A stretch of 64,000 bases of DNA from a virus. A program made the position numbers and the translations under genes. Every line of letters begins with the position of its first letter. The stretch's first letter is position 1. Shown here piece after piece: positions 34,063-50,346 of the stretch. Location of the stretch: the UHGV virus genome UHGV-0084588. The stretch is one strand, 5' to 3'. The notes beneath the pieces were generated by a model. The model saw only the letters and a program-made list of their open reading frames with translations, was not told where the DNA came from and made no database searches.

Positions 34063-34593
34063 GTGATAGCGCGACTTGCGAGTCGGTTTAAGCAACGTCG
34101 GGCAAAGGCGGTCGAATGGCCGCCTATTACGCATGACGAGAAAGTAGTTTCTTTTTTGGAATATAACAAAGACCTGAAAAGATTAGGTGAGTTAATGCAC
34201 TTAACGGAACGTCAGGTTTTTGCTAAGATTTCAAGTAGTGTTTTACGTAAACAGGTAATTCCACACCTATCCTTTTCAGGGCAGGTTTTTGCAATAGCGA
34301 CAGAGGAATTTTTATCGATAGCGGGGAATGAAACCCCACGTATACGGTACTCAGTTACAGGTTCATCAGATGCGGTTGGTACAGTTGATTTCGGACGGTT
34401 GTATCAGAGCATTAAAAGTACGGGCCATATACATGTTAAACGGGTATCAGAAACTTCTGTAGTGATTTATCACCGTACTGAGAATGATTTGTTCGGGCGT
34501 GTTATAAGGCTAACAAACTTACGCAGTTTTTACGTTGATTTGCTTACAGAGTTTTATCCAGAACCATGGTGCTTTATAGATGAAAATAAATGA
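34063..34593 (+). CDS. hypothetical protein (176 aa, GTG start)
   Basis: GTG start with SD aggaagagg upstream. Confidence 0.5.
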   Translation: MIARLASRFKQRRAKAVEWPPITHDEKVVSFLEYNKDLKRLGELMHLTERQVFAKISSSVLRKQVIPHLSFSGQVFAIATEEFLSIAGNETPRIRYSVTGSSDAVGTVDFGRLYQSIKSTGHIHVKRVSETSVVIYHRTENDLFGRVIRLTNLRSFYVDLLTEFYPEPWCFIDENK

Positions 34594-34792
34594 CGGATAT
34601 ATCATCACGGCAATTGTTTCAACTGCGCTGATTGTAACAATGTTGATGTTCTACGTTAAGACTTCCGACGAATCACGTAAAGAATCTCTTTATCGTGAAT
34701 GTATGGCAGGTACTACGGTAGATAATCCACGCTACGCTGAATTGGTAATGGCGTGTACGGATTACGCTAAACGAATGGGAGGTGGAGGATGA
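34580..34792 (+). CDS. small membrane protein (70 aa, one TM, two Cys)
   Basis: N-terminal hydrophobic helix YIITAIVSTALIVTMLMFYV; paralog of the next ORF. Confidence 0.4.
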   Translation: MKINDGYIITAIVSTALIVTMLMFYVKTSDESRKESLYRECMAGTTVDNPRYAELVMACTDYAKRMGGGG

Positions 34793-34986
34793 AAATTTGG
34801 TTACCGATTCTAGTTTTTATCCTTATCGCAGGAGCACTAGCAAGTGCTGAGTACGATAATCGTGTTCTAGAAACAAAGCGCGAACTGTATCAGGACTGTA
34901 TAAAGGATTACACACCGGGTACAGAGCTTCATGCACAGGCTGTAAAAAGTTGTGCACTGATGGCCGAATCGCAGACTCGTTCCTAA
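34789..34986 (+). CDS. small membrane or secreted protein (65 aa), paralog of 34580-34792
   Basis: N-terminal hydrophobic segment WLPILVFILIAGALASA; shares the LY..C...T......A....C pattern with the upstream ORF. Confidence 0.4.
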   Translation: MKIWLPILVFILIAGALASAEYDNRVLETKRELYQDCIKDYTPGTELHAQAVKSCALMAESQTRS

Positions 34987-35360
34987 TGCGAATCTGGACG
35001 CTACAACTCGCTAAGTGGCGATTAGCTAAGCAGAAAGGATTTCGCGCAGTGGATATCACTGTGAAGTCAGGGCGAAAGGAACTCGCCCCAGACTGGGATT
35101 TCCTAATGGCGTATAAAAACTCTGCCCAAGACGCCGCCGCTGAGCGTGAATACACGATAAAGTATTTGTACAAACTCGAACGACTGTTAGATACCGATGC
35201 CGAAACGTTGGTCTCGTTGCTTAGACACGAAGATTTGGTTTTGATGTGCTATTGTCCCGCAGGTAAGTTTTGTCATCGTCACCTACTGGCGAACAAACTT
35301 CAAGAAGTGGGAATGACGTTCGGTATCGATGTTGAGTTATGTGGAGAACTAACGGTCTGA
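34986..35360 (+). CDS. hypothetical protein (about 124 aa)
   Basis: Track ORF 34950-35360 trimmed to the ATG at 34986 (TAATG overlap with upstream stop); terminator downstream. Confidence 0.45.
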   Translation: MRIWTLQLAKWRLAKQKGFRAVDITVKSGRKELAPDWDFLMAYKNSAQDAAAEREYTIKYLYKLERLLDTDAETLVSLLRHEDLVLMCYCPAGKFCHRHLLANKLQEVGMTFGIDVELCGELTV

Positions 35361-35386
35361 TTTGATATTTAGCTGCAAAATGACCG

Positions 35387-35431
35387 CCTACCGCCCGATT
35401 CTATGGGCGGTAGGTGTTTTTATTTTTTTTT
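35387..35431 (+). terminator. rho-independent terminator before the fibre module
   Basis: CCTACCGCCC-gattctat-GGGCGGTAGG followed by tgtttttattttttttt. Confidence 0.65.
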
Positions 35432-35447
35432 GATCTGGGAGGTTTTA

Positions 35448-36008
35448 GTGACTGCTTACGTACCTGATTTAAGTTTGTCCTCAGCCGAACTAGTGGTCGC
35501 TTTAATCAACCACGATAACGGTTCACGGTTGTCTCTAAGCGAAATCCGTATTAGCAACACTACGGCAAACCCATCCCCGACCACTTCGCGTCGTAACACA
35601 CTGACAGAGATTACAAAAATCAGGAAACCTGATGGTGCTTCTGTAGTTGTTTATTACGACCGTTTGGATGCGGACGAAGTGTTAGCGTCTGAACCTATTT
35701 TGATTTCGTTAGATGGTACTGAAGACAACCTTCGTGACATTTTAGGTGTTGTAAATGAATTCTGCGGAACGAACTTACAACCCGAGGATTTACGTGCTTC
35801 AGATATCACCTTAGGTAAAGAACCCATTGCTGTCAACGTTGCTGACGATTCCCCTGCGTGGATGAATGCGTTTATGGTGACGTTATTTGATACAACCGAA
35901 CGGGCATTGGCAAACGAAGAAGATGCAATCTTCTGTATTGATGATGAGGCCGTTCTTACCTTTGAGGTTCCAGATGACGGTACGGCTGAAGAAAATCCGG
36001 CTATATGA
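35448..36008 (+). CDS. fibre-module accessory protein, member of a six-copy paralogous family
   Basis: GTG at 35448 preceded by gggagg; the track start at 35403 falls inside the terminator hairpin. Paralog of 42163-42678. Confidence 0.5.
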   Translation: MTAYVPDLSLSSAELVVALINHDNGSRLSLSEIRISNTTANPSPTTSRRNTLTEITKIRKPDGASVVVYYDRLDADEVLASEPILISLDGTEDNLRDILGVVNEFCGTNLQPEDLRASDITLGKEPIAVNVADDSPAWMNAFMVTLFDTTERALANEEDAIFCIDDEAVLTFEVPDDGTAEENPAI

Positions 36009-36212
36009 GCTTGACGCTTTTACTGGTAATGGAGGCCAAAGTAAACTTTTATCAAGACTTAGTAAACCCAGATCATGAGAACGCGGAATTGGACATCACT
36101 TTCACGTTAGAAGTTGATGGATTAAAACCAGTATAATAATCCGCTTATAAAAATGTTGGGGAGGTGCTTTACCTCCCCAGATCTTTTAGCTCCAGATAGA
36201 GAATTAAATATC

Positions 36213-39200
36213 ATGGCTAAAGCGGTAAAGAAAATACGTTTACACGATTTGCGTCCATACACCGGGGATATCGGTGAAGGCGTTTTACTTTTTTCGAAAG
36301 ACGAAAAAGATTATAAGTTACCCGTCCGCGAAATCGTTGCGGATATTGACACCGTCAGAAACGCGGTTGCTGATGCACAAACAGCTGCAGCCAAATCGCA
36401 GCAGTCTGCAACAGAAGCTACGCAAGCAAAAAATTTAGCGGAAACCGCGAAGCAACAAACTGACACGTTAGCTTCCACAGTCAGTGAGCAAGCGGGAACC
36501 GTTGCCACTAAAACTGCTGAAGTTAACAAAAAACACGCTGAAGTTTTAGCAGCGAAAACTGCCGTAGATACTGTTTCACAATCAGTAAATGAGAAGGCTC
36601 AAGCTGTCGCCACATCCGAACAATCTGTGACGGCTACGGCGGCTGATGTAACTAAGAAAGCAGAAACGGTTACGCAACAGGCCGGACAAGTTCAACAGAC
36701 GGCTACCAGCGTTGAAAATACCGCAGCTTCAGTCGAGGCCAGTAAAGGTGCAGTGGAGAAAATCGCTGCACAGGTCGCGAAAGATAAAGAAAGCTCAGAA
36801 GGGGCAGCTACGCGTTCGGAGTCAGCTGCCCTACGTGCGGAGAAAATCGCTGCCCAAGGATTAGTTGACGCTACTACAACCGGTAAAGGTATTGTTAAAC
36901 TTAACGATACCCTGACAAGCGATTCCGTGACTGAGGCTGCTACACCGTCCACGGTTAAACAGCTGAACGACGATTTACAGTTAAAAGCCAATAAACATTC
37001 GCCGAATTTTACGGGTAACCCGACATCCCCAAAACCGCCGAAGGACTCGAATGACACGAGTATCTCCACAACGTCCTGGGTGCGTGACGCGATTGCGGAA
37101 TTGGTTGGTTCTTCACCCGAGACGCTAAATACCTTAGCGGAATTAGCTGAGGCGTTAGGTAATGACCCTAACTTCGCAACAACGATCACTGAGGAACTTG
37201 CGCAGAAACAACCTCTCAGCCCGTTACTCACCGCTATTGCCGCAGTCACCACAGCGGCAAACAAACTCATGTATTTCACCGGCAGTAATAAAGTCGGATT
37301 AACAGATTTTACAGAAACGGCCAGATCCTTGTTAGCGAAAGGGTCAACTGCGGATATCATTAACTTCCTGGGTTTGAAACCCACCGTTGATAAAGCAAAC
37401 GGCGCATTACAGAAAAACTCTAACGGTGCTGATATCCCAAATAAAGAAACTTTTGCTCGCAACATCGGCCTATCTCCTGATACCTATCTGCGTTTCCGTG
37501 GCGAAATGCCTGTAGATGCTGATATTAACACATTTGCTCCAGATGCTAATTACACAGGAACATGGTCCAAGTCGACATCAACCAATGCGTCGATGGCAAA
37601 ACACTTCCCAGAAGACGGTGCAGTCGGTTATCTGGAAGTGTATAAAGCGGGCAACTACAGTGGAGCGCAACGTTTTACCTGCCGTAATGGTAACGTGTAC
37701 AACCGTATGTTGTCAGGTGCGTGGAACGGAACTAATGGCCCGTGGTCACCGTGGAGAATGGTAACTACCGGTGTACGTCCGTTATCTACATCGATCGATC
37801 TGAACTCCTTAGGCGGCGCTGAGCACATGGGTAACTGGCGTAACTCGTCCAGTTCGTTAGCGGTGTTCGACAGACATTATCCTGAAGAGGGCGGTAATGC
37901 GCAAGGCGTATTAGAAGTCATGGAAGGCGGTCTTTATGGACGGTTGCAACGATACACCACACGACATGGTACGATGTATGTCCGTGGTTTGACTGCGACT
38001 TGGGATTCTTCTAATCCGCAGTGGGAAGATTGGATTCAGGTTGGGTATCAGGTAGACGGTGCCTACTATAAGGGTAGCTTTAACGACTTAACTAAACCGG
38101 GCCGCTTTAGTGTTACCGGTGAGGCTACAGACAGTCCGTTAACAGACTCTGCTGGCGCAACCTTGCTAGGTGTTTGCGAAGTTACCTTACGCTTAGACGG
38201 TTCAGGCGTTGAACAAAATTATACCACATACGGTACAGGCGCAACTTCGAAAGGTCGCAAGTTCCAACGAATTCGTACAGGAAACGCCTGGAGCGAATGG
38301 CGAGAGATTTTCACATCCTATTCACTCCCGTTGACTTTAGGGATCGGTGGGGTTGCTGCTAAGGTCGATCCGTTAGACTGGCAAACATTCGACTTCGTTC
38401 CTGGCCAGATGATAAGTACACCGTTGAATACCATGAAAAATATTCCTGCGGGAATGGATTGGGGTGTTATCGACGGTAACTTGGTCACTATTCTTGTAGG
38501 GGCGTCGGAGGACACCGGTACTGGCCGGAGTATGTTGGTCTGGCGTGGTACAGTGTCTACTGCTAACTATCGCTTCTTTGCTGTTCGCGTCGCTGGTGAA
38601 AAGGGTAAACGTACTATTACTAGCCGCCAGATGCCCGTATTGAATGCAGCGCATACGTGGGCAGAAAAACAGACCTTTGCAAAAGGGTTATCGGGCGAAT
38701 TGACAGGTAATGCGTCAACGGCAACAAAACTGAAAACAGCCCGTTTAATCGGCGGTGTAAGTTTCGACGGTAGCGGCGACATTAGCCTCCCTGGTGTGAA
38801 CCAACAGGGTAATCAAAACACCTCTGGGAACGCGGGAACCGCAACCAAATTACAAACGGCTCGAAACATCAACGGTGTGAAATTTGATGGGTCTAGAGAC
38901 ATCAATATCAACACGTTGGTAGGACGTGGACGTGTTACTGCACTGTCTGGTTCAAACAAAGGTACACCCGGTATTCAGATGTACGAAGTTTACAATAACG
39001 GTTATCCAACCGCTTATGGTAACTTACTGCATTTGGGTGGCGCTACTGCGCTAGGTGAAGGCGAGCTGTTAATCGGATGGCCGGGGACGAGCGGTGCGCA
39101 CGCGCCTGTTTATATTCGTAGTCGACGTGATACGGCTGATGCACCGTGGTCAGATTGGGCACAAGTTTACACTGCCCGTGACAGCATTCCTGGCGTAAAT

Positions 39201-40655
39201 GCCACCGGTAATCAAGATACTACCGGCAACGCCGCTACCGCGACGAAACTGAAAACCGCTCGCAGGATCGGAGGCGTTACCTTTGACGGTACAGGTGATA
39301 TCAATTTACCGGGCGTTAACCAGCAAGGCAACCAGAATACGACAGGTAATGCAGCGACCGCTACTAAGTTACAAACCGCACGTAAGATCGGCGGTGTGCT
39401 TTTCGATGGGACAAAAGACGTTAATCTTCCTGGCGTAAACCAAACCGGTAACCAATCGACTACGGGGAATGCGGCGACAGCGACTAAGCTCCAGACTGCG
39501 CGAAATATAGGTGGTGTAGCTTTTGATGGTACTAAAGACATCAGTTTACCTGGAGTAAACCAAACAGGTAATCAGGCGACTACCGGAAACGCAGCCACGG
39601 CAACAAAGTTGCAAACCGCAAGAACCATTAACGGTATCGCATTTGACGGCACTAGAAATATATCGTTAGGACCTGCCGATATAGGTTGTCCGGCATCGCC
39701 TAGTGGTTGGTTAGAAACTGGCAAAGATGGCGGCGCAATAACTACAGCACAGCTAGTGACGTTATTGAAAAATAACGGCGCATTTACCACAAGATCGTGG
39801 GTTGCTCGCTGTGCATGGGCTTATGCCGCTAGTGCGTCCATACCACACAGCGAGACGGGTTGTGGTGTTATTCCGTTAGCTGGGGCCGTTATAGAAGTGA
39901 TTAGTAACGGTAATAGCACAAACAACTACACGATCCGTATAACGACTGCCACAACGGCGAGCGTCGGTGGCGCACTCACTAATGCGGAGTTTATCTACGT
40001 ATTTAACGGCGATACATACTCACCAGGCTGGCGTCGTGCTTACAATACGAGAAACAAGCCAACTGCTGCAGAAGTGGGTGCACTACCTTCGGGGGGCGGT
40101 ACTATAGGCGGCGATTTAACCGTTAACGGTAAATTGGCCACTAAATACCCTGATTTTCGAATCGCTTACGGTACCTACGGTTTTATTTTACGTAACGACG
40201 GTGCCAATACCTATTTCTTAGTAACCGACGCCGGACAAGCCGCAACGGGTTCCTGGAACGGATTACGCCCGTTGTCTTTTAATAATTCTAACGGCCAAGT
40301 AAACTTTGGACATAACGTTACTGGCAACGGTAACGGTTCGTTTAACGACGTACAGATTCGTTCTGACCGTCGTAACAAACGTAATCTGGTGAAGCTGGAT
40401 AAAGCTTTGGATCGGTTAGAGTTACTAACCGGTTATTTGTACGAAATTCAGCATCCGGATGACGGCTGGCAGACTTCTGTAGGTCTAATTGCTCAGGACG
40501 CATTAGAAGCGTTACCTGAACTTGTGTCTGAGGATGATGATGCCATTTCAGGCGAAAAACGTTTACGTCTAAACTACAATGGCGTTATTGCGCTGTTAGT
40601 AGAGGGTATGAAAGCGTTGCGTCAAGAGGTTAACGAAATTAAAGGAAGATCCTAA
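36213..40655 (+). CDS. tail fibre protein with Ala-rich coiled coil, 40-aa tandem repeats and C-terminal intramolecular chaperone (S74-like) domain
   Basis: 1480-aa ORF; repeats GNAATATKLQTAR.IGGV.FDGT.DI.LPGVNQ.GNQ.TT; C-terminal SDRRNKRN...GLIAQD...YNGVIALLVEGMKALRQE resembles the self-cleaving chaperone domain of tail fibres and tailspikes. Start moved from 36153 to 36213 by paralogy with 42678. Confidence 0.85.
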   Translation: MAKAVKKIRLHDLRPYTGDIGEGVLLFSKDEKDYKLPVREIVADIDTVRNAVADAQTAAAKSQQSATEATQAKNLAETAKQQTDTLASTVSEQAGTVATKTAEVNKKHAEVLAAKTAVDTVSQSVNEKAQAVATSEQSVTATAADVTKKAETVTQQAGQVQQTATSVENTAASVEASKGAVEKIAAQVAKDKESSEGAATRSESAALRAEKIAAQGLVDATTTGKGIVKLNDTLTSDSVTEAATPSTVKQLNDDLQLKANKHSPNFTGNPTSPKPPKDSNDTSISTTSWVRDAIAELVGSSPETLNTLAELAEALGNDPNFATTITEELAQKQPLSPLLTAIAAVTTAANKLMYFTGSNKVGLTDFTETARSLLAKGSTADIINFLGLKPTVDKANGALQKNSNGADIPNKETFARNIGLSPDTYLRFRGEMPVDADINTFAPDANYTGTWSKSTSTNASMAKHFPEDGAVGYLEVYKAGNYSGAQRFTCRNGNVYNRMLSGAWNGTNGPWSPWRMVTTGVRPLSTSIDLNSLGGAEHMGNWRNSSSSLAVFDRHYPEEGGNAQGVLEVMEGGLYGRLQRYTTRHGTMYVRGLTATWDSSNPQWEDWIQVGYQVDGAYYKGSFNDLTKPGRFSVTGEATDSPLTDSAGATLLGVCEVTLRLDGSGVEQNYTTYGTGATSKGRKFQRIRTGNAWSEWREIFTSYSLPLTLGIGGVAAKVDPLDWQTFDFVPGQMISTPLNTMKNIPAGMDWGVIDGNLVTILVGASEDTGTGRSMLVWRGTVSTANYRFFAVRVAGEKGKRTITSRQMPVLNAAHTWAEKQTFAKGLSGELTGNASTATKLKTARLIGGVSFDGSGDISLPGVNQQGNQNTSGNAGTATKLQTARNINGVKFDGSRDININTLVGRGRVTALSGSNKGTPGIQMYEVYNNGYPTAYGNLLHLGGATALGEGELLIGWPGTSGAHAPVYIRSRRDTADAPWSDWAQVYTARDSIPGVNATGNQDTTGNAATATKLKTARRIGGVTFDGTGDINLPGVNQQGNQNTTGNAATATKLQTARKIGGVLFDGTKDVNLPGVNQTGNQSTTGNAATATKLQTARNIGGVAFDGTKDISLPGVNQTGNQATTGNAATATKLQTARTINGIAFDGTRNISLGPADIGCPASPSGWLETGKDGGAITTAQLVTLLKNNGAFTTRSWVARCAWAYAASASIPHSETGCGVIPLAGAVIEVISNGNSTNNYTIRITTATTASVGGALTNAEFIYVFNGDTYSPGWRRAYNTRNKPTAAEVGALPSGGGTIGGDLTVNGKLATKYPDFRIAYGTYGFILRNDGANTYFLVTDAGQAATGSWNGLRPLSFNNSNGQVNFGHNVTGNGNGSFNDVQIRSDRRNKRNLVKLDKALDRLELLTGYLYEIQHPDDGWQTSVGLIAQDALEALPELVSEDDDAISGEKRLRLNYNGVIALLVEGMKALRQEVNEIKGRS
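38706..38912 (+). repeat. two tandem copies of a 120-bp (40-aa) fibre repeat inside the tail fibre gene
   Basis: Encodes GNASTATKLKTARLIGGVSFDGSGDISLPGVNQQGNQNTS followed by a diverged copy. Confidence 0.7.
39225..39680 (+). repeat. four tandem copies of the 120-bp (40-aa) fibre repeat inside the tail fibre gene
   Basis: Copies begin at 39225, 39345, 39465 and 39585; each encodes GNAATATKLQTAR.IGGV.FDGT.DI.LPGVNQ.GNQ.TT with synonymous codon drift. Confidence 0.8.
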
Positions 40656-41437
40656 TGGCAGTTGTCGGCGTAGGTGGTTGGATTGGTTCTTCAGCAAAAG
40701 CTGAAGCTGGTAACGAATGGATGTCTGGCGCGATGCGCACACTTGGTGTGCCGGTTCCAGGCTGGATGTCGCAATTGGCGGGAAAATCAAAAGAGGTCCA
40801 TTATTCTATTGGTGCTAACCATAGCTATAATAAGGATACTCTTATTAACTATTTACGTTCTTTAGGCTCTACTGCTGTCGTTGTGACTATTACGGGGGAT
40901 TTAGTGTCCCATAGTAGCACGGTTCCTTGTTTAGAATTCCCTAGCAATCTTCCAAATTCGTATATTACCCTCATCATCAATCCTGGGGTTACAGTATACG
41001 GCAGAGGAGGCAACGGCGGTTCTAACTCACCAGGCGGTGCAGGTGGAACCGCAATACAGAACGGAATAGGAAACAGACTGCGTATAACCAACCGTGGCGC
41101 TATTGCCGGAGGCGGTGGCGGCGGTGGCGGCGGTAACAGGGGTAGACTAACATTTGGTGGTGGCGGTGGTCGCCCATTCGGTGCTGGTGGGTCTTCCTCT
41201 CATATGAGTTCCGGTGCGGCTGCTGGTACTATTTCCGCTCCTGGTAGAGGATCTGTTGGTGAGGGGTCTCTTAGTGCATATACAGGCGGTTCGGGTGGTA
41301 ATGTCGGTGCTGCTGGAGGAAGATGTAATACTCATGGTAACGGTACAGAATATAACGGCGGAGCAGCTGGTAAAGCTGTTACTGGTAATGCGCCAAGATG
41401 GGACGCAGTAGGTGCAATATATGGTTCACGTGTTTAA
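40655..41437 (+). CDS. glycine-rich protein (260 aa), likely fibre-associated
   Basis: Start overlaps the fibre gene stop (TAATG); contains GGGGGGGGGNRGRLTFGGGGGRPFGAGGSS. Confidence 0.6.
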   Translation: MAVVGVGGWIGSSAKAEAGNEWMSGAMRTLGVPVPGWMSQLAGKSKEVHYSIGANHSYNKDTLINYLRSLGSTAVVVTITGDLVSHSSTVPCLEFPSNLPNSYITLIINPGVTVYGRGGNGGSNSPGGAGGTAIQNGIGNRLRITNRGAIAGGGGGGGGGNRGRLTFGGGGGRPFGAGGSSSHMSSGAAAGTISAPGRGSVGEGSLSAYTGGSGGNVGAAGGRCNTHGNGTEYNGGAAGKAVTGNAPRWDAVGAIYGSRV

Positions 41438-41497
41438 TTTGAAAAAGTATGGGGGTACTCACTCCCCTCCTCGCATCTTTCAAAAGGTGGGGGTAAA

Positions 41498-42010
41498 ATG
41501 GCGGTAGCATCAGGATGGGTCGGATCTTCAGCTAAGAATGAAACTGGCGAACAATGGATGAGCGCTGCGGGTAGTAAATTAGGATTGGGTAGACCATTTA
41601 TGATGAGTCAAATGGTGGGCCGATCTACGGGTTGTAAAATTGCGACCGCTTACTACAAAGGGAATCCTCCTGATAAAGTTGAAAACTGGGGGGCCGTAGG
41701 TTCAGATTGGCCATTGGCTGAAAAGAACAAAGGCACAATTACTGGTGCTTCGAGCTGTGGTTTAGGTCGTTTAGTGGGGATCGTACTTACGCAAGCTCAC
41801 TACATTTCTGGTGTTCCACCCACTGCGGCTTTATACATCGCAGGAGGAAGGGCAAGTAATATTACAGTAACAGTTGGTGGGGTCTCACAAGTTTTCACCT
41901 ATAATAGTGTTATTAACGGTTTTCACTATTACTGGCAAGGAACACCTAGTTCGGCCTTTATAGCAGCAATGAAGAGAACGGGTGTTACACAAGATTTGAA
42001 AATTAGTTAA
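41498..42010 (+). CDS. paralog of the glycine-rich protein (N-terminal domain only, 170 aa)
   Basis: N-terminus MAVASGWVGSSAKNETGEQWMSAA aligns with MAVVGVGGWIGSSAKAEAGNEWMSGA of 40655-41437. Confidence 0.55.
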   Translation: MAVASGWVGSSAKNETGEQWMSAAGSKLGLGRPFMMSQMVGRSTGCKIATAYYKGNPPDKVENWGAVGSDWPLAEKNKGTITGASSCGLGRLVGIVLTQAHYISGVPPTAALYIAGGRASNITVTVGGVSQVFTYNSVINGFHYYWQGTPSSAFIAAMKRTGVTQDLKIS

Positions 42011-42162: not shown

Positions 42163-42678
42163 ATGGGGCAATTCGTGCCGGATTTGTCGTTAACTTCACT
42201 TAACATGGTTATTTCACTGGTTAACCATGACCTCCAGCTCGACTTGCAAGAGAACGAGGTTGAAGTCAGCGACGTAAAGACCAGTAACGAAATGGATCGT
42301 GACACCACTGCTGTTGTAAAGATAAAACGTCCGGACAACAGAACGTTGCAGATATATTACAACCGTTTAACCGCAGAGCGGTGGTTAAACCAGCAACCTA
42401 TCCTAGTAAAGGTTTCCGGTAATGGCTTTACCGCACACGATCTAATCGACGGAATTAACGCGGCTTGTGGTTGTAATTTACAACCCGACGATCTTACCGA
42501 CGAATCATTTACCGTAGGGAAAGACGCTGTAACGTTACAGGTTTCACCCAACTCGTTAGGTTATAAAGGCCAATTCTCCGTTCTGGTTTTCGGTAACGAT
42601 GAAGAAGCTGCTGTAGTAAAAGACAACGATTTAATCGTTACCGCAGATAACCGTGTCTTAACATTCGGAGGCCGCTAA
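42163..42678 (+). CDS. fibre-module accessory protein, paralog of 35448-36008
   Basis: Shares PDLSL..., IYYNRLTA and CGCNLQPDDL motifs with 35448-36008; SD gggag upstream. Confidence 0.55.
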   Translation: MGQFVPDLSLTSLNMVISLVNHDLQLDLQENEVEVSDVKTSNEMDRDTTAVVKIKRPDNRTLQIYYNRLTAERWLNQQPILVKVSGNGFTAHDLIDGINAACGCNLQPDDLTDESFTVGKDAVTLQVSPNSLGYKGQFSVLVFGNDEEAAVVKDNDLIVTADNRVLTFGGR

Positions 42679-43298: not shown

Positions 43299-43304
43299 AT
43301 TTTA

Positions 43305-43352
43305 GGTAGTAGGGGCTTAAGCCCCTACTACCTTTTCTTTTTTTTATTTTTT
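43305..43352 (+). terminator. rho-independent terminator after the fibre module
   Basis: GGTAGTAGGGGC-ttaa-GCCCCTACTACC followed by ttttcttttttttatttttt. Confidence 0.7.
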
Positions 43353-43398
43353 CTCAGATATATATTACCTAGGGGAGAGTGAAATTTACATTCACTCC
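43353..43398 (+). promoter_or_regulatory. conserved promoter-like element with downstream inverted repeat
   Basis: CTCAGATATATATTACCTAGGgGAGAGTGAAatttacaTTCACTCC upstream of 43426. Confidence 0.45.
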
Positions 43399-43425
43399 AT
43401 TAGTTATAGCCGAAAGGAGGATTAG

Positions 43426-44277
43426 ATGTATCACCCGTATTATCTCCCGCGTATTCTAGCAAATAGGGACCCTGGTTATTACTACGAACAAACAAAGGGG
43501 TCTTTTAATCGACTTTACATTCGTGAATTTAATACCGACGAAATGACCGATGACCAGTATCTGGAGTATCTAAAAGACCTTTACAGTTTTTCAAAATCGA
43601 ATAAAGATGGCTTTGGACGTTCCGCAGTCATTAGAGATGGTGAATATCGCCATTTGGCTAAGCCTGTTACGTACCCTATTGTTACGCGAGCTTATACGTC
43701 GGATAGGCAATATATTGCTGAACTAAAATTTCCTTTACGGATAGACGGGCCTCAAATTAGCGCTATAGAAGTAGAAATTCAACCAATTGCTGAAAACTAT
43801 ATTGAGGACTACTTCAAGAAAGCTAAAGACGTACTCGACGAGGGTTTAAGTTACTCTGAAGAAGGCACGATTTGTCTTCTCTCGTTACTCACGAAGACTT
43901 ACGTCACGGCAAATTTCCGTGTCTCTGATTCCAGTAACTACAATACACTTACTCCCTCTAAGACAAAATCGGTTTATTGGGACGATCGGTTAGTCGACAG
44001 ACAACGCTGGCTTACTATCTTAGATAGAGTAAAATTCGAACCCCCTAAACACACCGAAGACAATTTTATTTTATTGCACAACTTCGAACCAATTTATATT
44101 CCAACGCATTTTGATCAAGCCTTACGTCATCGGTTGAAGTATGTGTTGGAATTACGGTACGGAAAGATAAACGGACTAACCTGTTCCGGTGAATTGGGTG
44201 AAGAAGAACGCGAGAAGATAAAAATCGTGTTTGATAAGTTGGTTGAAGATTACATTAAGAAGGAAGGGCAATTATGA
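43426..44277 (+). CDS. hypothetical protein (283 aa)
   Basis: ORF preceded by a promoter-like element and SD aaggagg. Confidence 0.5.
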   Translation: MYHPYYLPRILANRDPGYYYEQTKGSFNRLYIREFNTDEMTDDQYLEYLKDLYSFSKSNKDGFGRSAVIRDGEYRHLAKPVTYPIVTRAYTSDRQYIAELKFPLRIDGPQISAIEVEIQPIAENYIEDYFKKAKDVLDEGLSYSEEGTICLLSLLTKTYVTANFRVSDSSNYNTLTPSKTKSVYWDDRLVDRQRWLTILDRVKFEPPKHTEDNFILLHNFEPIYIPTHFDQALRHRLKYVLELRYGKINGLTCSGELGEEEREKIKIVFDKLVEDYIKKEGQL

Positions 44278-44717
44278 AACCAAATACTACTAACGGCATT
44301 ATGCTACTTTGTGATTCTGAAACGTTAGCAAATCGCATTCGTGGTTTGATGCAAGTACGTTGGCGGCAGAAAGTTCTCGTGGATTACGATGCACCGTTTG
44401 TTCACATTACCTGGCTGCCAGAAGCTAGTGATTTCAAAGAACGTATAACCACGAGAAGAATTAAAGAATGGTTATCGGCAATCATTAATAAACAGATTAC
44501 CGTTATCAATTTCCAACTTTTCGGTACCGCTGAAGAACATGAAATCTTGAAGCAGTGTTTAAGAGACTTGGGTCTTTCCTCTTCTGTTCGTGGTAGCTGC
44601 TACACGGCTTACTTTATCGGTTCACTTGAACTGTTTAAGAATACACTAATGCTTCAACTAAAAGACGACTACAAACTTTTAGATAAAATCGATTTCGAAT
44701 TCCCAGGCATGATTTAA
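44274..44717 (+). CDS. hypothetical protein (147 aa)
   Basis: ORF start overlaps the upstream stop (ATGA). Confidence 0.5.
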   Translation: MKPNTTNGIMLLCDSETLANRIRGLMQVRWRQKVLVDYDAPFVHITWLPEASDFKERITTRRIKEWLSAIINKQITVINFQLFGTAEEHEILKQCLRDLGLSSSVRGSCYTAYFIGSLELFKNTLMLQLKDDYKLLDKIDFEFPGMI

Positions 44718-44763
44718 GGAATCATAGCTTAATCACCCCACCATTTACCTAAAGGAGCATTAA

Positions 44764-45279
44764 ATGTCAGTAAATATTAACATGAATCTTTATACTAAAC
44801 GTGAACGTCAGATTCTGGCGAATCAACCTGGTGTTACGACTATCGACGGTAAACCTATTGACCGTTTAAAAGTTATCGTTGCGCGAAATTGTCATGAACA
44901 CGATTGGGACATTACCTACTTCCGTTGTTGTTCGGTCGCAAATGCGCTTACTCAACTCTCTAACTACCACTCAGGACCGCTATTAAAAGACTGGGTTTGG
45001 TTAGTGCCAAGAACACCCACAGCAATTGAGTATCCCGCTGGACTAGTTTATATTCGACCTGTCGCTTATCCAGAGCGTCTGAAAGAATATCTTGAAGTTA
45101 TCTGGAACCGTCCTCGTAAAGAGCTGGTGACGATTATTAATTTACTGCAGCAGATCGAAATCCCCGGCGTTTCGAATTTGAAACTCACGTCTCGCGATAT
45201 TAACCAGGCTTACTGGGAACTGGAGTGGACAGAACCGAAATTCGAAAACACTAACCGTATTTTCTTGCACCGGGGGTAA
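44764..45279 (+). CDS. hypothetical protein (171 aa)
   Basis: ORF with conserved leader acctaaaggagcatta upstream. Confidence 0.5.
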   Translation: MSVNINMNLYTKRERQILANQPGVTTIDGKPIDRLKVIVARNCHEHDWDITYFRCCSVANALTQLSNYHSGPLLKDWVWLVPRTPTAIEYPAGLVYIRPVAYPERLKEYLEVIWNRPRKELVTIINLLQQIEIPGVSNLKLTSRDINQAYWELEWTEPKFENTNRIFLHRG

Positions 45280-45281
45280 AA

Positions 45282-45563
45282 ATGTTAGATTGGTTGTTGG
45301 GTTTAATTAACACACGTCAACAGGAGCTTTATAAAGAAAACACGCGATTACGGCAGGAGCTTAGTAACAATCGTCAGACCAAACGACAATTAATTCGGAT
45401 GGTAAAACAACAGGCGCGTTGTATACGTGATATCGATTATCAGTATCACCGTCTGAATACCTTAGACCCAACAACAAAAGCCCTCGGTGGGACAATCGGA
45501 CACGCACGTAAAGTCAGTCACGATGCGTTAGTTCGATTAGATACAATAGAAGAGAAACTGTGA
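45282..45563 (+). CDS. small coiled-coil protein (93 aa)
   Basis: ORF with basic heptad-like sequence; hairpin 45578-45604 downstream. Confidence 0.45.
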   Translation: MLDWLLGLINTRQQELYKENTRLRQELSNNRQTKRQLIRMVKQQARCIRDIDYQYHRLNTLDPTTKALGGTIGHARKVSHDALVRLDTIEEKL

Positions 45564-45605
45564 TATAACCCCTCTCAGGAAATCCTGAGAGGGGGGAGTA
45601 ACGAT

Positions 45606-45980
45606 ATGTCATTACTGTTATACAAATTCAGATGTTGGCTAGACACTTCGTTTAAAACCTGGGCTTGCGGCAAGAATGTCACAACGGTAGTTAAATCGGG
45701 TGACTGGTATACGGAAATTATTACATTAGCAAATGGAGGATTGCAAAACGTACAAGTTCGTAACGTAGTTGTTAGAATAGGACGTGAAGGAGGTGCAATC
45801 TTCAACTCTGAATACTATCAAGTTTCTGCCCTGGAGTTAAAAAACGGTCCGATTTTATTTATCGGTACAGCACAACACCTTTACGATACAGTTGTTAAGT
45901 TTGCTGAAAGGGTAAAACGTTTAAATGATTCGCTTAGTAAGTTTATTAAAGAAACTGAACGAACTACGGTGGAGATTTAA
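45606..45980 (+). CDS. hypothetical protein, tandem paralog A (124 aa)
   Basis: Shares W.CGK.V..VVK.GDWYTE..T..NG.L.NV..R.V.V..GR.GG..F.SE with the next ORF. Confidence 0.5.
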   Translation: MSLLLYKFRCWLDTSFKTWACGKNVTTVVKSGDWYTEIITLANGGLQNVQVRNVVVRIGREGGAIFNSEYYQVSALELKNGPILFIGTAQHLYDTVVKFAERVKRLNDSLSKFIKETERTTVEI

Positions 45981-45983
45981 AAG

Positions 45984-46370
45984 ATGCGTTTATTTTACTT
46001 AAAAAGGCGTTTGTCATTAAAAGCCCAACTGTTTGTTAACGAGAAAGTTAAAAACTGGCTGTGCGGTAAAAGGGTACAATATGTCGTTAAAGAAGGAGAC
46101 TGGTATACGGAGGTTGTGACTTCCCCTAACGGTGAACTTATAAACGTTACTATTCGTGACGTTATGGTTAAGGTTGGTAGGGGTGGCGGTCGGTTGTTTG
46201 AATCGGAAACTATAAGAGTCGCTGCTAAACAATTGAAAGATGGTCGAGTTTTATTCAATGTTACCGCCCAGAAATACTACGACAATTTATTCGAGTGTCA
46301 ACGAGCAATGGACAGAATGACCCGTGAGATGCGAAGAATGCACATTACGGAGATCACAATAGGAGTTTAA
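45984..46370 (+). CDS. hypothetical protein, tandem paralog B (128 aa)
   Basis: See 45606-45980. Confidence 0.5.
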   Translation: MRLFYLKRRLSLKAQLFVNEKVKNWLCGKRVQYVVKEGDWYTEVVTSPNGELINVTIRDVMVKVGRGGGRLFESETIRVAAKQLKDGRVLFNVTAQKYYDNLFECQRAMDRMTREMRRMHITEITIGV

Positions 46371-46681
46371 TGATGGAAAATAAAATCGCGAACACATCGG
46401 CACCTGAGAACATTGTCAATTATATTCTCAGAGGCGGGTTATTAGAAGACAACAAAGAAACGTGCGATAAACTCGTTTCTCAACTACTGCCTATTCGTTC
46501 AGAATACTGCGAAATCGTTATCTTAGGTTCCGAGTATTGTGTACGCTCTTACTGCCGACGTTTCGAAGCCCTACGTGTACCTCGTACGTTAGGTGGTGTG
46601 ATCTTACTGATCTCATCTTTTCAAGACGCCCATGTGCGTGTGGCGACCTGGATTGCCAGAGGAGGTAACAGTGGTTTTTAA
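46370..46681 (+). CDS. hypothetical protein (103 aa)
   Basis: ORF start overlaps the upstream stop. Confidence 0.45.
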   Translation: MMENKIANTSAPENIVNYILRGGLLEDNKETCDKLVSQLLPIRSEYCEIVILGSEYCVRSYCRRFEALRVPRTLGGVILLISSFQDAHVRVATWIARGGNSGF

Positions 46682-46979
46682 ATTGCTAGGTTTCGGAAAA
46701 TGCAAAGAGTGCGCAAAGCACGAAGAATTTATCAAGCTATTAGAAGAAACAGTTGAAACACAACAAGAACTCATTTCTGAATACCGTGCGAAAACTGGTT
46801 CAGTAGAATATCTGACCATCCTTGTTTGTGCTATTGCTGAGTTGGGTTGTGAGGGGGAATTGCCTAAAGAGGAGATATTAAAACTATTAAAAGAAAAAAC
46901 GTCGTTTTACCGTAAAGATATTGAAGCGTGTAAACGTGAGGTTAAAAGAGCTAACTGGGAGGTTATCAATGAAGCGTGA
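46671..46979 (+). CDS. hypothetical protein (about 102 aa, GTG start)
   Basis: Track ORF 46632-46979 trimmed to the GTG at 46671, which has SD ggaggt 5 nt upstream. Confidence 0.4.
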   Translation: MVFKLLGFGKCKECAKHEEFIKLLEETVETQQELISEYRAKTGSVEYLTILVCAIAELGCEGELPKEEILKLLKEKTSFYRKDIEACKREVKRANWEVINEA

Positions 46980-47250
46980 AACTATTGTATTTTGTCAAAA
47001 CGGTGATGTAAAACAATACCGGGGCAAGAAGTTAATTCGTACGTTAGATTATCGCGAAGCAAAACGTTTCGTTGAAGAGTGTGCGTGGTTAATGCATTAC
47101 GAAGGGAACTATCGCGCCATCTTAGAAGCACCGCGTTTAGAACGTGCAGTTGCGCAGATGGCAATAGGTAATCCTAAGAACTGTTACCTGGCCCGTAAGC
47201 CCAAATACCTACAGCGTGTCTCGCTAGGCAGTTTTATTGCGGGTTTTTAA
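46969..47250 (+). CDS. hypothetical protein (about 93 aa)
   Basis: Track ORF 46921-47250 trimmed to the ATG at 46969 with SD gggagg upstream. Confidence 0.4.
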   Translation: MKRETIVFCQNGDVKQYRGKKLIRTLDYREAKRFVEECAWLMHYEGNYRAILEAPRLERAVAQMAIGNPKNCYLARKPKYLQRVSLGSFIAGF

Positions 47251-47260
47251 TAAAAATATT

Positions 47261-47307
47261 TTCAGATATATATTACCTAGGTGAGAGTTCAGTTACTCTC
47301 ACTTAAC
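47261..47307 (+). promoter_or_regulatory. conserved promoter-like element with perfect palindrome
   Basis: TTCAGATATATATTACCTAGGTGAGAGTtcagttACTCTCACTTAACG upstream of 47332. Confidence 0.45.
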
Positions 47308-47331
47308 GAAACCATTTTAGGAGAATATACC

Positions 47332-47826
47332 ATGAACTTCACTAGACTTGATTACACTAACGAATTAGTCGACAAAGAAAAATACAAATTCACGATTGAC
47401 TTGGGTTACGGGCTGTGGGACGTAGAAAAAGATATTCTACACAAAGAATTCCGTGAGCAATTCGGTGCATTATTCTGCGCAGGATTCCGTAGAAATTCTA
47501 TTGATATCGGTTATGGTGCAACACCGTATAGCGACGAAGAAATGTTTACGCTGATAACACAGATTATCGGAACTCGTGTGGCTAAACGTTTTAATTATTC
47601 TAACGAACTTGTTTCGAAAGAACATTACAAGTTCACTGTTAGACTACCTGTTCCTCTCTTTAAAGAAGATAAGAATAGACTCTATAAAGCCCTACAAACC
47701 GAATTCGGTAAAACGCTCAAAATAGGGTTCCGCAGTCGTAGTATCGATATCGGAATTAGCGTAGACGTGTGCAGTGACGATGACCTTTACGAATTAGTTT
47801 CGGAAGTTATCGGAAAACACCTCTAA
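47332..47826 (+). CDS. protein built from two tandem copies of an 80-aa domain (about 164 aa)
   Basis: Halves align (Y.NELV.KE.YKFT..L...L......L.K.....FG.....GFR..SIDIG); track start 47281 lies inside the promoter-like palindrome, so the ATG at 47332 with SD aggag is preferred. Confidence 0.5.
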   Translation: MNFTRLDYTNELVDKEKYKFTIDLGYGLWDVEKDILHKEFREQFGALFCAGFRRNSIDIGYGATPYSDEEMFTLITQIIGTRVAKRFNYSNELVSKEHYKFTVRLPVPLFKEDKNRLYKALQTEFGKTLKIGFRSRSIDIGISVDVCSDDDLYELVSEVIGKHL

Positions 47827-47870
47827 GCGTAAATTAACGCTTCAGCTTGTAAAACCAAAAGGAAAATAAA

Positions 47871-48647
47871 ATGAAAACTATCGAGTTTAAGAATAGTAGT
47901 CTTTGGGCATACACGCACATCATTACGAGTTTCCTGAGAAACGTTACTCCACATCTTGCTTATCAGATTTATGGGAATGAGCTCACTATCGGTGGTTTTA
48001 ACGAGGATGAATTAAAACGAGCAAAAGAGTTCATTGACGATGTTCTTCGTGGTGAAGCAACGTGTTTAGTTGCAAGTTACGTTGCTAAAGACAAAGGAAG
48101 ATTAAACGTCATGGCAATTTTCAGATCGTTCTCCGAAAAAGTATACGAAGTTGAGAAGATTAGTCATACCGTTTATATTGTTTACTTTAAACGTTCGGCG
48201 GAGAAAAACGCTGATAAAATTCTGGAGTATTTCGACTGTAACCCGGGGGAAGGTATGGATGTCTATACGCTCGGTTACGATGGGGTACCTCACCGGAATA
48301 ACCTTATTCGCATTGACGAACCTTTTTCAGTCAATGACGATTCCTCGCCTATAGAGATGGTTCTGGTACACAAAGATCGTTTCGCGCATTACGACTCTGA
48401 TACTATTCAACGTGTCCTGAACAACGTTAATATACAGTTTTCACAAACCGAGCACTTAGTACGTGCATGTCTTAGGTCTAATGGCACAACATCATTTTTC
48501 TTCGAACGTCAAACCGTTTGGCAAACTTATCTGGCTCTGATGGAAGAACTTGATAGGATCGAGCCAGTTCAGGTTGGTGCAAATTGCTTATATTGGATAA
48601 AAACAAAAGGGTTCATGAATGAAAACGCTCAATTCAGATTTGCGTGA
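47871..48647 (+). CDS. hypothetical protein (258 aa)
   Basis: ORF with SD aaggaaa upstream. Confidence 0.5.
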   Translation: MKTIEFKNSSLWAYTHIITSFLRNVTPHLAYQIYGNELTIGGFNEDELKRAKEFIDDVLRGEATCLVASYVAKDKGRLNVMAIFRSFSEKVYEVEKISHTVYIVYFKRSAEKNADKILEYFDCNPGEGMDVYTLGYDGVPHRNNLIRIDEPFSVNDDSSPIEMVLVHKDRFAHYDSDTIQRVLNNVNIQFSQTEHLVRACLRSNGTTSFFFERQTVWQTYLALMEELDRIEPVQVGANCLYWIKTKGFMNENAQFRFA

Positions 48648-49047
48648 TTACATCCGTCAGTACCCAGCCAGTATTCCTGTACTGGCTTCACTTACGCTTT
48701 CAGGTACTGACGTTAACATCTTAACGGTGGAACAGTTCCACGAGATAATAAAAACCGCCTATAACTCCATTACCGCAACGTCAGTACGTAAACGTTGCGA
48801 TTATCCCGACGGGGATTTCGGCACCGAGATGTTTACCGATTACGCAGTTGCGTTTCTGTTAGGACGACACTGCCTCGATAAACTTAACACTGCAGTAGAA
48901 GGGGAAACAGTGACGGAAATAGTCAACGCTTGGCAGCAACGTATTCTGAGCGACCCTTACTGCCGCCAGGCGTTAAAACGAATGTCCACAACGGCGATTA
49001 CAAACGACCAGCGTGCTTTAGAGTTCTTTAAGCACAACTACAGCTAA
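48619..49047 (+). CDS. hypothetical protein, paralog of 49908-50339 (142 aa)
   Basis: N-terminal L.D.IR.YIR..P....VLA.....TD....L...E...EI..T.Y..I shared with 49908-50339. Confidence 0.5.
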   Translation: MKTLNSDLRDYIRQYPASIPVLASLTLSGTDVNILTVEQFHEIIKTAYNSITATSVRKRCDYPDGDFGTEMFTDYAVAFLLGRHCLDKLNTAVEGETVTEIVNAWQQRILSDPYCRQALKRMSTTAITNDQRALEFFKHNYS

Positions 49048-49069
49048 TTTACCAAAAGGAAAAAATGAC

Positions 49070-49831
49070 ATGTTTAATATCGAAATTACCCCGCTCGTTA
49101 AAACTGAAATCCGTCCGGTTCCTGAAGCACAGTTACTCGATCAACTTTATCGCATATTCCTGGATAAAGGTGTACATTTCCGTGTAGAGCAGGTCAACGA
49201 TGAAAGCATCGTATTCTACTGGACTCACTGCAACGATTATCTTTGCGACACTATTGCGAAAGAAATCGGTGAGTTACTCAACTCAGCAGAAGGTACCACG
49301 AACACTCGGGTGGAAACGACCGAGACTGAACAACCGAAAGTAGAAGAACAGCAGAAAGACGAACCACACGTCCTCTGGTACGAAGGTAAGAAGATTAAGG
49401 AAATTAAAGAAGCGTTAGAGACCCTCTATCCCGACGATTTAGGTATTTATTCGGATAACGATAAGATCGTCGTTCGATTGAAGAAAGACGATCGTAATCT
49501 CATGGAAGAAATTAGTTCCATCGCTGAGCTGATCGATAACGATGCCGTTCGACTTATTTCGATTCATGGTATCGGAAAAGATACCGCTGATGAACTCATG
49601 CGTGTGGCTGTGCACGAACACAAGGAGAAAATTCATCAATCCGTTTACAAAGGTGAAACACTCACCGTTTTGATCGACAACGATGTTGAGGTTTTCAAAT
49701 CATTAACGAACTTTTTGCGAATTGTTTCAACGGATTCTTATATCGAAAAAGCACGTGCCTTGGTTCTCGAAAAGCTTTTTAATATTTACAACAAAGATTG
49801 CGATTGTCCTAATTGTCAAAAACGTCGTTAA
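49070..49831 (+). CDS. hypothetical protein with C-terminal CDCPNC motif (253 aa)
   Basis: ORF with acidic mid-region and C-terminal Cys cluster. Confidence 0.5.
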   Translation: MFNIEITPLVKTEIRPVPEAQLLDQLYRIFLDKGVHFRVEQVNDESIVFYWTHCNDYLCDTIAKEIGELLNSAEGTTNTRVETTETEQPKVEEQQKDEPHVLWYEGKKIKEIKEALETLYPDDLGIYSDNDKIVVRLKKDDRNLMEEISSIAELIDNDAVRLISIHGIGKDTADELMRVAVHEHKEKIHQSVYKGETLTVLIDNDVEVFKSLTNFLRIVSTDSYIEKARALVLEKLFNIYNKDCDCPNCQKRR

Positions 49832-49907
49832 TTAACGACATTCTAAATTCAACCAAGGGGTGGTTTACCGCCCCTCTATTATTGTATTTACCTAAAGGAG
49901 TATTAAA

Positions 49908-50339
49908 ATGTTTTTCGTATTAAATGATGAAATCCGTAACTACATTCGTAACAATCCGATTGCTCTGGGCGTTTTAGCAGGTTTCTGTCGCCCAAATACT
50001 GACTTCGATTTAGTTAAGTTAGAAGAATATCAGGAAATTGTGAATACTAACTACATGCACATCTGTAGCTGGGGTAAACGTCCTCGTGAAGAGTACCCTG
50101 TAGGTGAGTTAGGTGACACTATGCATCGTGACCAGAATCTGATGCACGAATTCGTTGAATACACACTGGAAAATCTTAACTATCCGCTTCTGGTCGACAC
50201 TGTACCAGAAATGGTTGACGAATGGTTAAGTCGTGTTTACAATGACCCTACTACCAACAAGTTACTGAGTCAGATGTCGCAAACTTCTCGTGATATCGAC
50301 ACTCGCACCCTAATGTACTTAGCACACAACGTTCGCTAA
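49908..50339 (+). CDS. hypothetical protein, paralog of 48619-49047 (143 aa)
   Basis: See 48619-49047; conserved leader acctaaaggagtatta upstream; terminator downstream. Confidence 0.5.
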   Translation: MFFVLNDEIRNYIRNNPIALGVLAGFCRPNTDFDLVKLEEYQEIVNTNYMHICSWGKRPREEYPVGELGDTMHRDQNLMHEFVEYTLENLNYPLLVDTVPEMVDEWLSRVYNDPTTNKLLSQMSQTSRDIDTRTLMYLAHNVR

Positions 50340-50346
50340 CCTCACT

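Follow-up and report, generated by a model that had tools for sequence, protein, structure and literature searches.

The region considered here lies on the + strand of the virus genome UHGV-0084588, between positions 34,580 and 50,339 of a 64,000-nucleotide (nt) stretch that was analysed as a whole and that we call the window. Between 33 and 52 kb the map of open reading frames (ORFs) consists of densely packed + strand genes, including a tail fibre of 1500 amino acids (aa). The original prediction, made from the letters of the window, had singled out three pairs of neighbouring paralogs (34580/34789, 45606/45984 and 48619/49908; genes are named by their first position, see Table 1) and one internally duplicated gene (47332), and had taken them as the mark of an actively expanding accessory region. 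We conclude that the genes at 43426–50339 are a discrete accessory block between the tail-fibre module and an array of virion paralogs of the DUF7941 family. Three of the four flagged items fall inside this block (43.3–50.4 kb).

The window encodes a phiKZ-type major capsid protein (match to PF25620, PhiKZ_MCP, E 1.4e-208). Its gene order is syntenic with ACQ60_gp151 to gp128 of Salmonella phage SPN3US, at protein identities of 23–63%; in both phages tail-fibre genes are followed by a series of small hypothetical genes and then by an array of virion structural paralogs. As judged from the capsid protein and this synteny, the window is part of a phiKZ-lineage, Seoul-like jumbo phage related to SPN3US. 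At the nucleotide level no close relative was found among 50,697 phage records, the sole match being an intergenic element of 40–60 nt. The relatives that form the clade are contigs of 217–239 kb from gut and other metagenomes (clade genomes are ~222 kb), and the clade also occurs in Salmonella, Shigella and Enterobacter isolate assemblies. Two closed genomes contain members deposited as circular “plasmids”: NZ_CP173450.1 (221,873 bp, E. coli 98232 from urine, Egypt) and NZ_CP134650.1 (222,441 bp, Enterobacter ludwigii). These occurrences fit an earlier description of Seoul-like jumbo phages that persist in bacterial assemblies (bioRxiv 10.1101/2024.12.31.630880). Sixteen related loci spanning the block (numbered with L below) were compared gene by gene.

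Pairwise alignments with significance estimates upheld all four proposed duplications. By BLASTP, 45606–45980 and 45984–46370 share 46 of 110 residues (42%, E 9e-32), and 48619–49047 and 49908–50339 share 46 of 137 (34%, E 4e-29). The gene 47332–47826 consists, as proposed, of two copies of a domain of ~80 aa (aa 1–83 vs 84–164, 32/79 identical or 41%, E 4e-22). The gene coordinates were likewise correct, including the start of this last gene, which is ATG 47332 and not the upstream GTG 47281 because its orthologs in relatives are 164 aa long. The membrane pair 34580–34792/34789–34986 gave 8 identical residues in 26 (E 8e-4 in a single BLASTP comparison), with a Smith-Waterman z of 5.2 and an empirical p of 0.0004 (5000 shuffles). 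In both proteins an N-terminal transmembrane helix precedes the pattern [FY]-x-x-C-x17-C with A-x-x-V-x-x-C, an architecture also seen in SPN3US, which has just one small protein at this place in the gene order. On these grounds we accept 34580 and 34789 as a weak but real small family. The inclusion of this pair in the same expanding region did not hold: its surroundings are conserved and not part of the variable block, and it is therefore not the same phenomenon. Both genes were present in 10/10 related loci fetched, and the 65-aa member is indexed with an identical sequence in 113 collection blocks. Going by this distribution, the membrane pair is a separate, fixed, clade-specific duplication.

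What the list of paralogs named was confirmed, and its completeness was not, as all-vs-all BLASTP found further sets. Within the same range these are 35403/42163 (34% identity, E 1.3e-31), which group with 15304, 50506 and 51368 in the DUF7941 family, and the N-termini of 40655/41498 (gp38-type adhesins) and of 36153/42678; 54511/55107 lie outside it. An adjacent trio of small paralogs was also seen outside the range, on the − strand (60095–60301, 60312–60707 and 60717–61109; 32–37% identity, E 1e-10 to 3e-6), and 60312–60707 has no Pfam match.

The accessory block is enclosed by two terminator-like hairpins and opens, in each of its two halves, with a copy of an AT-rich promoter-like element (Table 1). 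Its exact 14-nt core, CAGATATATATTAC, occurs three times in the window (25307–25320 and the two block copies; chance expectation 0–0.4), always on the + strand, in an intergenic T-rich gap and ~45–50 nt ahead of a start codon; the copy at 25307 precedes a helix-turn-helix (HTH) regulator and a GNAT gene. The element is ~30 nt long and is followed by a leader hairpin (free energy, dG, −8.9, −11.9 and −16.0 kcal/mol after the cores at 25307, 43355 and 47263, respectively), with leaders extending to 25379, 43425 and 47331. In 16/16 related loci spanning the block, the core was found exactly twice and at the same relative positions, whatever genes follow. It occurs once in SPN3US, ~60 nt upstream of the homolog of 48619 and 49908, and this element is the 40–60-nt match noted above, the only one at the nucleotide level to Erwinia phages Huxley and Machina and to Salmonella SPN3US-like phages. 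In jumbo phages that encode an RNA polymerase (RNAP), the promoters of the virion RNAP are defined by an AT-rich motif of ~10 nt that is conserved ahead of early operons (PMC7598289). The present motif is likewise AT-rich, conserved, placed upstream of operons and oriented in the gene direction, and it is probably the virion-RNAP early promoter of the SPN3US-like phage group. Because the element matches this description, we read 43426–47250 and 47332–50339 as two early operons, and the motif suggests that the block as a whole is probably expressed early. A scan of the block for sigma-70 promoters gave 16 sites vs 19 expected in shuffled sequence, and searching the literature for the core as a string yielded no relevant paper.

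The tandem pair 45606/45984 occupies a slot whose content differs between relatives. Its genes fall into three subtypes: A (129 aa, 45984-like), B (124 aa, 45606-like) and C (124 aa, ~64% identical to B), with A ~40% identical to B and to C. The slot was occupied in every sampled locus and was seen in six states: A alone (L002, L008, L009, L025), B alone (L026, L027), C alone (L003–L005, L011–L013), the B+A tandem (window, L006, L007), a 122-aa B/A chimera (L010) and, in L014, a divergent 102-aa gene followed by a leftover B 3′ end and then A. In L014 (Enterobacter ludwigii CP134655.1, 3962–4361), the 102-aa gene stands in the B position and the B 3′ end after it is untranslated; this gene resembles the A/B/C family only faintly (hhalign E 0.0065) and may be a fourth, very divergent cassette type.

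The junctions within the slot are informative on its history. Window B and window A are 54% identical in nucleotides and their longest common stretch is a run of 14 nt, GACTGGTATACGGA. The chimera of L010 is 100% identical to window B up to this run and ~100% identical to window A beyond it; a window-like tandem has therefore collapsed by recombination, and the junction proves that L010 derives from such a B+A tandem. All cassettes end in a common stop, ribosome-binding site and start linker, GGAG-N-TTTAA-N-ATG, and the A copy of the tandem is joined to B exactly there. Just upstream of the slot, after a 93-aa gene, stands a very stable GC-rich hairpin that has no T-run and is found at equivalent positions in L002–L027. 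Its arms are CTCCCTCGG/CCGAGGGAG in A-type and CCCCTCTCAGG/CCTGAGAGGG in B/C-type genomes; since they differ and co-vary between these types, the structure is selected and travels with the cassette, and it may be an element of RNA stability, processing or translational control. The A copy of the window has neither the A-type hairpin nor the first methionine (Met) codon present in A-only genomes. Together with the shared linker, these absences favour a single slot for which A and B are old alternative cassettes. The alleles A, B, C and the fourth type, which are deeply diverged, would then each normally stand alone in the slot with their own upstream hairpin. The B+A tandem would most likely have arisen when a B genome and an A genome recombined, unequally or illegitimately, at the linker, and it would be able to collapse again through recombination between its copies, as in L010.

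The other duplicated genes of the block differ in how stable they are. The proteins encoded by 48619 and 49908 belong to the phrog_8484 family (residues 1–128 of 48619 align to profile positions 3–126 of 140). Matches to this family were found by tblastn in 33 SPN3US-like phage records, at one place each, and the neighbours ACQ60_gp129 and gp132, where a second copy was sought in SPN3US, are without profile similarity. Both copies were present in all 13 related loci covering them (identity 78–97% for copy 1 and 59–98% for copy 2). From this distribution it appears that the gene is single in SPN3US-type phages and was duplicated once, long ago, in the ancestor of the clade, where the pair is now fixed. 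An AlphaFold2 (AF2) model of the 49908 protein had a mean predicted local distance difference test (pLDDT) score of 91.6, a predicted template-modelling score (pTM) of 0.84 and seven helices. With Foldseek it matched Erwinia phage Stratton protein A0A1B2IH41 at a template-modelling (TM) score of 0.85, as well as two further jumbo-phage proteins, all uncharacterised and from Erwinia jumbo phages, and the predicted fold is thus common to family members from other phages; a second, weaker match in phage Stratton scored 0.63–0.68. No match was found among solved structures in the PDB (best E 0.98, TM score ~0.2–0.3).

The internally duplicated gene 47332 is 164 aa long in every locus but L010, which carries a divergent 88-aa single-domain allele. 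The alignments indicate that the 164-aa gene is a fusion of two domain copies and that the single-domain allele still circulates. In searches of 5.8 billion and 1.84 billion proteins, neither this gene nor, spurious WD40 matches aside, the A/B/C family was found outside the clade. The gene at 49070, between the two phrog_8484 copies, is 253–255 aa long in the window and four relatives and 361–395 aa elsewhere, the longer alleles containing an internally duplicated module of ~110 aa (E 1.7e-16 and 1e-14). By hhalign, residues 107–229 of the window protein match the module in a 280-aa gene of relatives, which occupies a slot that is empty in the window. The C-terminus of the 49070 protein, including that of longer alleles, has a conserved C-D-C-P-x-C-Q-K-R-R, and a Pfam match to the helix-hairpin-helix (HhH) domain falls below threshold (22.1 bits vs a cut-off of 27); these two features may hint at nucleic-acid binding.

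Our comparison with related genomes thus confirms the accessory nature of the region for 43.4–50.3 kb, by differences in both content and copy number. Whole genes of the block are present, absent or swapped between relatives, and copy number varies at 45606/45984 (1–2 genes), 47332 (1–2 domains) and 49070 (1–2 modules). Changes among relatives are losses and replacements as well as copy-number differences. Within one genome pair, identity per gene ranges from ~24% to 100% in discrete allele classes, a signature of recombinational mosaicism. Every block gene has an ortholog ratio of nonsynonymous to synonymous divergence (dN/dS) of 0.05–0.3; all are under purifying selection and are therefore working genes.

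What these genes do can be proposed from their context. Pfam and PHROGs place block genes in families of unknown function only, PDB sequence searches with 47332 and 49070 gave no match, and a PDB profile search with the A/B/C family gave nothing below E 0.1. A role in host interaction is suggested by the position of the genes, by the type of promoter, by the coexistence of allele turnover and purifying selection, and by SPN3US counterparts that are not annotated as virion proteins. The block proteins would be early, non-structural host-interaction proteins whose diversity is kept by recombination among co-circulating phages, and takeover, anti-defence or superinfection exclusion are proposed roles for the cassette genes. 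Two further assignments were tried and rejected. A WD40 beta-propeller was considered for the A/B/C family, but Pfam finds nothing in 45606 or 45984, and the WD40 matches of the family profile (E 7.6e-8 to 1e-3) are weak, consist of several stretches in long repeat proteins and are regarded as repeat artefacts. A hidden superfamily of 44274, 47332, 47871 and 49070, which by eye seemed to have a beta-turn-beta-helix module in common, found no support past the known pairs when 24 ortholog alignments were compared all-vs-all with hhalign (probability below 5%); the only new link was that of the 280-aa gene, absent from the window, with 49070.

The part of the original prediction that did not hold is the active expansion. 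Repeat finders, including Tandem Repeats Finder (TRF), detected no DNA-level repeats between paralogs at 34–52 kb; the repeats found there were 120-nt repeats in the tail fibre, the promoter element and one chance-level 24-mer. Synonymous divergence (dS) between paralogs is saturated. The duplications are therefore not recent, and by these measures none of them, B and A included, qualifies as a recent (active) tandem duplication. Ongoing growth through frequent recent local duplication would accord with the clustering of several paralog sets within 16 kb, with a second operon of five genes, including a duplicated family, against three in SPN3US, and with the presence in the window of two genes in a slot where most relatives hold one. 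Yet amino-acid identity within pairs is down to 34–42%, two pairs and the two-domain gene are at or near fixation in the clade, the sole polarised event is the loss in L010, and the window itself has the shorter, single-module allele of 49070 and is without genes present in relatives. We regard this explanation as very unlikely and consider it already largely refuted. The duplications are best dated as ancient, with two pairs (phrog_8484 and membrane) fixed across the relatives examined. The block is accessory and highly reshuffled, carries the ordinary old paralogs of such phages and is not currently expanding: we give this reading a probability of about 0.7, a figure that applies to it as a whole, with the phage identity, the block of two operons, the old duplications, the slot model and the separate membrane pair.

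Several points weigh against this reading. The searches of Pfam, PHROGs and the PDB (by sequence) and with Foldseek give no informative function for the block genes, and the AF2 model of the A/B/C family is unreliable (pLDDT 53). Early expression is read solely from the motif, with three copies in the window, and from the literature description. The loci compared number only ~16 and were picked through the variable genes themselves, so that the counts of slot states are not frequencies. Moreover, an ancestral tandem with repeated loss of one member predicts the same slot states, and we infer the direction of change. In that scenario the B+A tandem is an old in-situ duplication from which the A-, B- and C-only genomes arose by deletion; loss of the DNA between the direct repeats TTTAA-N-GATG, which lie at the ends of B and A, would yield the exact B-only junction, collapse is demonstrated in L010, and L014 retains a B 3′ remnant ahead of A. 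However, the co-varying hairpin and extra Met codon of A-only genomes are both absent from the tandem A, so A-only genomes are not derivable from the tandem by simple deletion, and single-cassette genomes are the majority of sampled loci. An ancestral tandem is thus possible but, in our view, doubtful. A role in the virion has less to recommend it. Accessory proteins of the virion or tail fibre (chaperones, decorations) that co-evolve with receptor-binding proteins could be expected where the block lies, with tail-fibre and gp38 adhesin genes on one side and DUF7941 virion paralogs on the other, next to receptor-binding genes that vary in the same genomes (206-aa vs 706–731-aa SASA/DUF6645 proteins), and in a jumbo-phage group with very large structural paralog families (PMC5105663). 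But terminators insulate the block, which has its own early-type promoter elements (the third copy standing before a regulator and a GNAT gene), and the syntenic SPN3US genes are “hypothetical protein” in RefSeq whereas their neighbours are annotated as virion structural proteins; we find such a role improbable. If the A/B/C genes were selfish elements akin to homing endonucleases, their patterns of presence, absence and tandem arrangement would be explained; the variable occupancy of the slot and a weak match of 45984 to phrog_9508 “HNH endonuclease” agree with this view. That match is far from significant (E 0.0034) and is not shared by 45606, an alignment of 18 sequences has no invariant His/Asn catalytic motif, an exhaustive search with hidden Markov models (HMMs) found no nuclease relatives, the slot is never empty in the sampled loci, and a dN/dS of 0.2–0.3 with allele-like behaviour fits a gene that benefits the phage. 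We rejected the HNH assignment, and homing elements are hardly credible here.

A bolder proposal goes beyond the reading of a reshuffled block with old paralogs: the 45606/45984 slot could be a specificity locus under balancing or diversifying selection and, at the same time, the phrog_8484 pair a new all-helical early-protein heteromer. If so, each cassette would be directed against its own host defence or confer its own type of superinfection immunity in persistently infecting Seoul-like phages, and tandem genomes such as the window would combine two specificities. We consider this combination unlikely and offer it as speculation.

Hypervariable or plasticity regions with moron-like cassette slots are familiar from tailed phages, the hyperplastic regions of T4-like phages being an example. 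The block shares with these its conserved flanks and regulatory frame, interchangeable cargo, discrete alleles and recombination at short linkers, and differs in that the slot is resolved to a 14-nt crossover and a co-varying cassette hairpin, and in that its cargo families are found in one clade only. The closest counterpart is the small hypothetical block ACQ60_gp141 to gp129 of SPN3US (Seoulvirus), present also in Erwinia and Cronobacter jumbo phages. It has the same gene order, with orthologs of 44764, 45282, 46921 and the phrog_8484 gene, an AT-rich core upstream of the latter and then the same DUF7941 array. In contrast to the window, SPN3US has one phrog_8484 gene and one small transmembrane C-x17-C protein rather than two of each, and is without the A/B/C family, the two-domain 164-aa gene and genes 47871 and 49070; identity of the shared genes is 23–63%. 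Large paralog families are known in phiKZ-like phages, such as the phiKZ gp131-like tail family and the 17-member head family of SPN3US (PMC5105663). Old, diverged and clustered paralogs are a hallmark of this group, to which the DUF7941 genes of the window belong; however, the published families are virion proteins, whereas the flagged pairs are small, apparently non-structural, of two members each and placed in a separate block. The early regions of the RNAP-encoding jumbo phages phiKZ and AR9 (PMC7598289) are similar in having a conserved AT-rich motif upstream of one-strand operons of small genes, with hairpins in the 5′ leaders; the window motif differs in a sequence specific to the SPN3US/Erwinia group, and membership of the early class is predicted here from the motif.

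Clustered diverged paralogs and plastic accessory regions are to be expected in phiKZ-like jumbo phages, and in this respect the finding is ordinary, though resolved in unusual detail for a clade that is uncultured but widespread. Its modest value lies in a well-resolved example of a conserved regulatory frame (two promoter elements and terminators) with swappable cargo, in a cassette slot observed in six states (among them a tandem, a 14-nt microhomology chimera and a replacement footprint), and in what appears to be a new, confidently modelled helical fold restricted to SPN3US-type phages. Gut metagenomes often contain this clade, which also persists in clinical isolates of Enterobacteriaceae; the variable early genes are therefore reasonable candidates for roles in takeover, anti-defence and persistence, and the allele map shows which variable genes of the block merit testing first.

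Table 1. Coordinates in the window of the paralogs, cassette genes, putative regulatory elements and neighbouring virion genes.
Feature	Position	Strand	Remarks
Small single-pass membrane protein, copy 1, 70 aa	34580..34792	+	Transmembrane helix and C-x17-C; 69–70 aa in 10/10 related loci
Small single-pass or secreted protein, copy 2, 65 aa	34789..34986	+	Same C-x17-C; start overlaps the stop of copy 1
DUF7941-family virion-protein paralog	35403..36008	+	Partner of 42163–42678
gp38-type tail-fibre adhesin, glycine-rich	40655..41437	+	N-terminal domain common with 41498–42010
Second gp38_N-domain protein	41498..42010	+	Partial paralog of 40655–41437
DUF7941-family paralog	42163..42678	+	Partner of 35403–36008
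Strong terminator-like hairpin, 13-bp stem then T-run	43304..43333	+	Closes tail-fibre module, opens accessory block
AT-rich promoter-like element	43351..43380	+	Core CAGATATATATTAC at 43355–43368, then leader hairpin; start of accessory operon 1 (43426–47250)
Very stable 11-bp hairpin just upstream of the A/B/C slot	45569..45594	+	dG −24.9 kcal/mol, z −5.3
Cassette gene subtype B, 124 aa	45606..45980	+	First in tandem
Cassette gene subtype A, 128 aa	45984..46370	+	Second in tandem; joined to B at TTTAAAAGATG linker
Promoter-like element, second copy	47259..47288	+	Core 47263–47276, 11-bp leader hairpin; start of accessory operon 2 (47332–50339)
Internally duplicated gene, 164 aa	47332..47826	+	Domain 1, 47332–47580; domain 2, 47581–47823
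Swappable cassette gene, 258 aa	47871..48647	+	Alleles of relatives 91%, 47% or 24–26% identical, or an unrelated 157-aa gene
phrog_8484 family protein copy 1, 142 aa	48619..49047	+	E 1.1e-15
Gene between the phrog_8484 copies, 253 aa	49070..49831	+	Single-module allele
phrog_8484 family protein copy 2, 143 aa	49908..50339	+	E 3.8e-20; predicted seven-helix fold
Terminator-like hairpin, 12-bp stem	50346..50373	+	Directly after the last paralog; closes accessory block

The genes that flank the block belong to the virion. DUF7941 corresponds to PF25613, which 54511 matches with 43.9 bits (cut-off 27) and which is present in the relatives’ orthologs of 42163, 50506, 51368, 54511 and 55107; BLASTP links these paralogs to the “virion structural protein” array of SPN3US. 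Seven dispersed members were seen in the window (15304–15831, 35403–36008, 42163–42678, 50506–51354, 51368–51844, 54511–55041 and 55107–55637), fewer and shorter than in SPN3US. The adhesin assignment is supported by PF21721 (Gp38_N) and PF05268 (GP38), with matches to PHROG 2056 (E 5.9e-94) and PHROG 1121 (E 3.3e-54); orthologs of 40655 and 41498 carry Gp38_N plus GP38, or Gp38_N only. The two window proteins have only the N-terminal 38 aa in common: 40655–41437 continues into the glycine-rich GP38 domain and 41498–42010 combines Gp38_N with a different C-terminus. Both are T-even-style adhesins in a phiKZ-lineage phage.

The tail-fibre gene 36153–40655 contains, at 38703–39619, six repeats of 120 nt (40 aa; GNxxTTGNAATATKLQTAR.IGGV.FDG..DI.LPGVNQ) with 62–74% DNA identity, the sole coding DNA-level repeats at 34–52 kb besides the chance-level 24-mer, and the fibre varies from 1435 to 1559 aa among relatives. 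Its first ~40 aa (36153–36330) are homologous to those of the 206-aa protein 42678–43298 (42678–42800) and to the N-terminus of the SPN3US tail fibre; this common N-terminus has the look of an attachment adaptor that interchangeable receptor-binding modules share. The 206-aa protein is missing from some relatives, and in others a 706–731-aa SASA/DUF6645 protein stands in its place (L007 653–2848, L010 727–2847). A 43-aa ORF at 36005–36136, called as a gene in relatives too, matches with its residues 14–41 the C-terminus of a 1005-aa SPN3US tail protein (54% over 28 aa) and is possibly a remnant or detached C-terminal piece of a tail protein.

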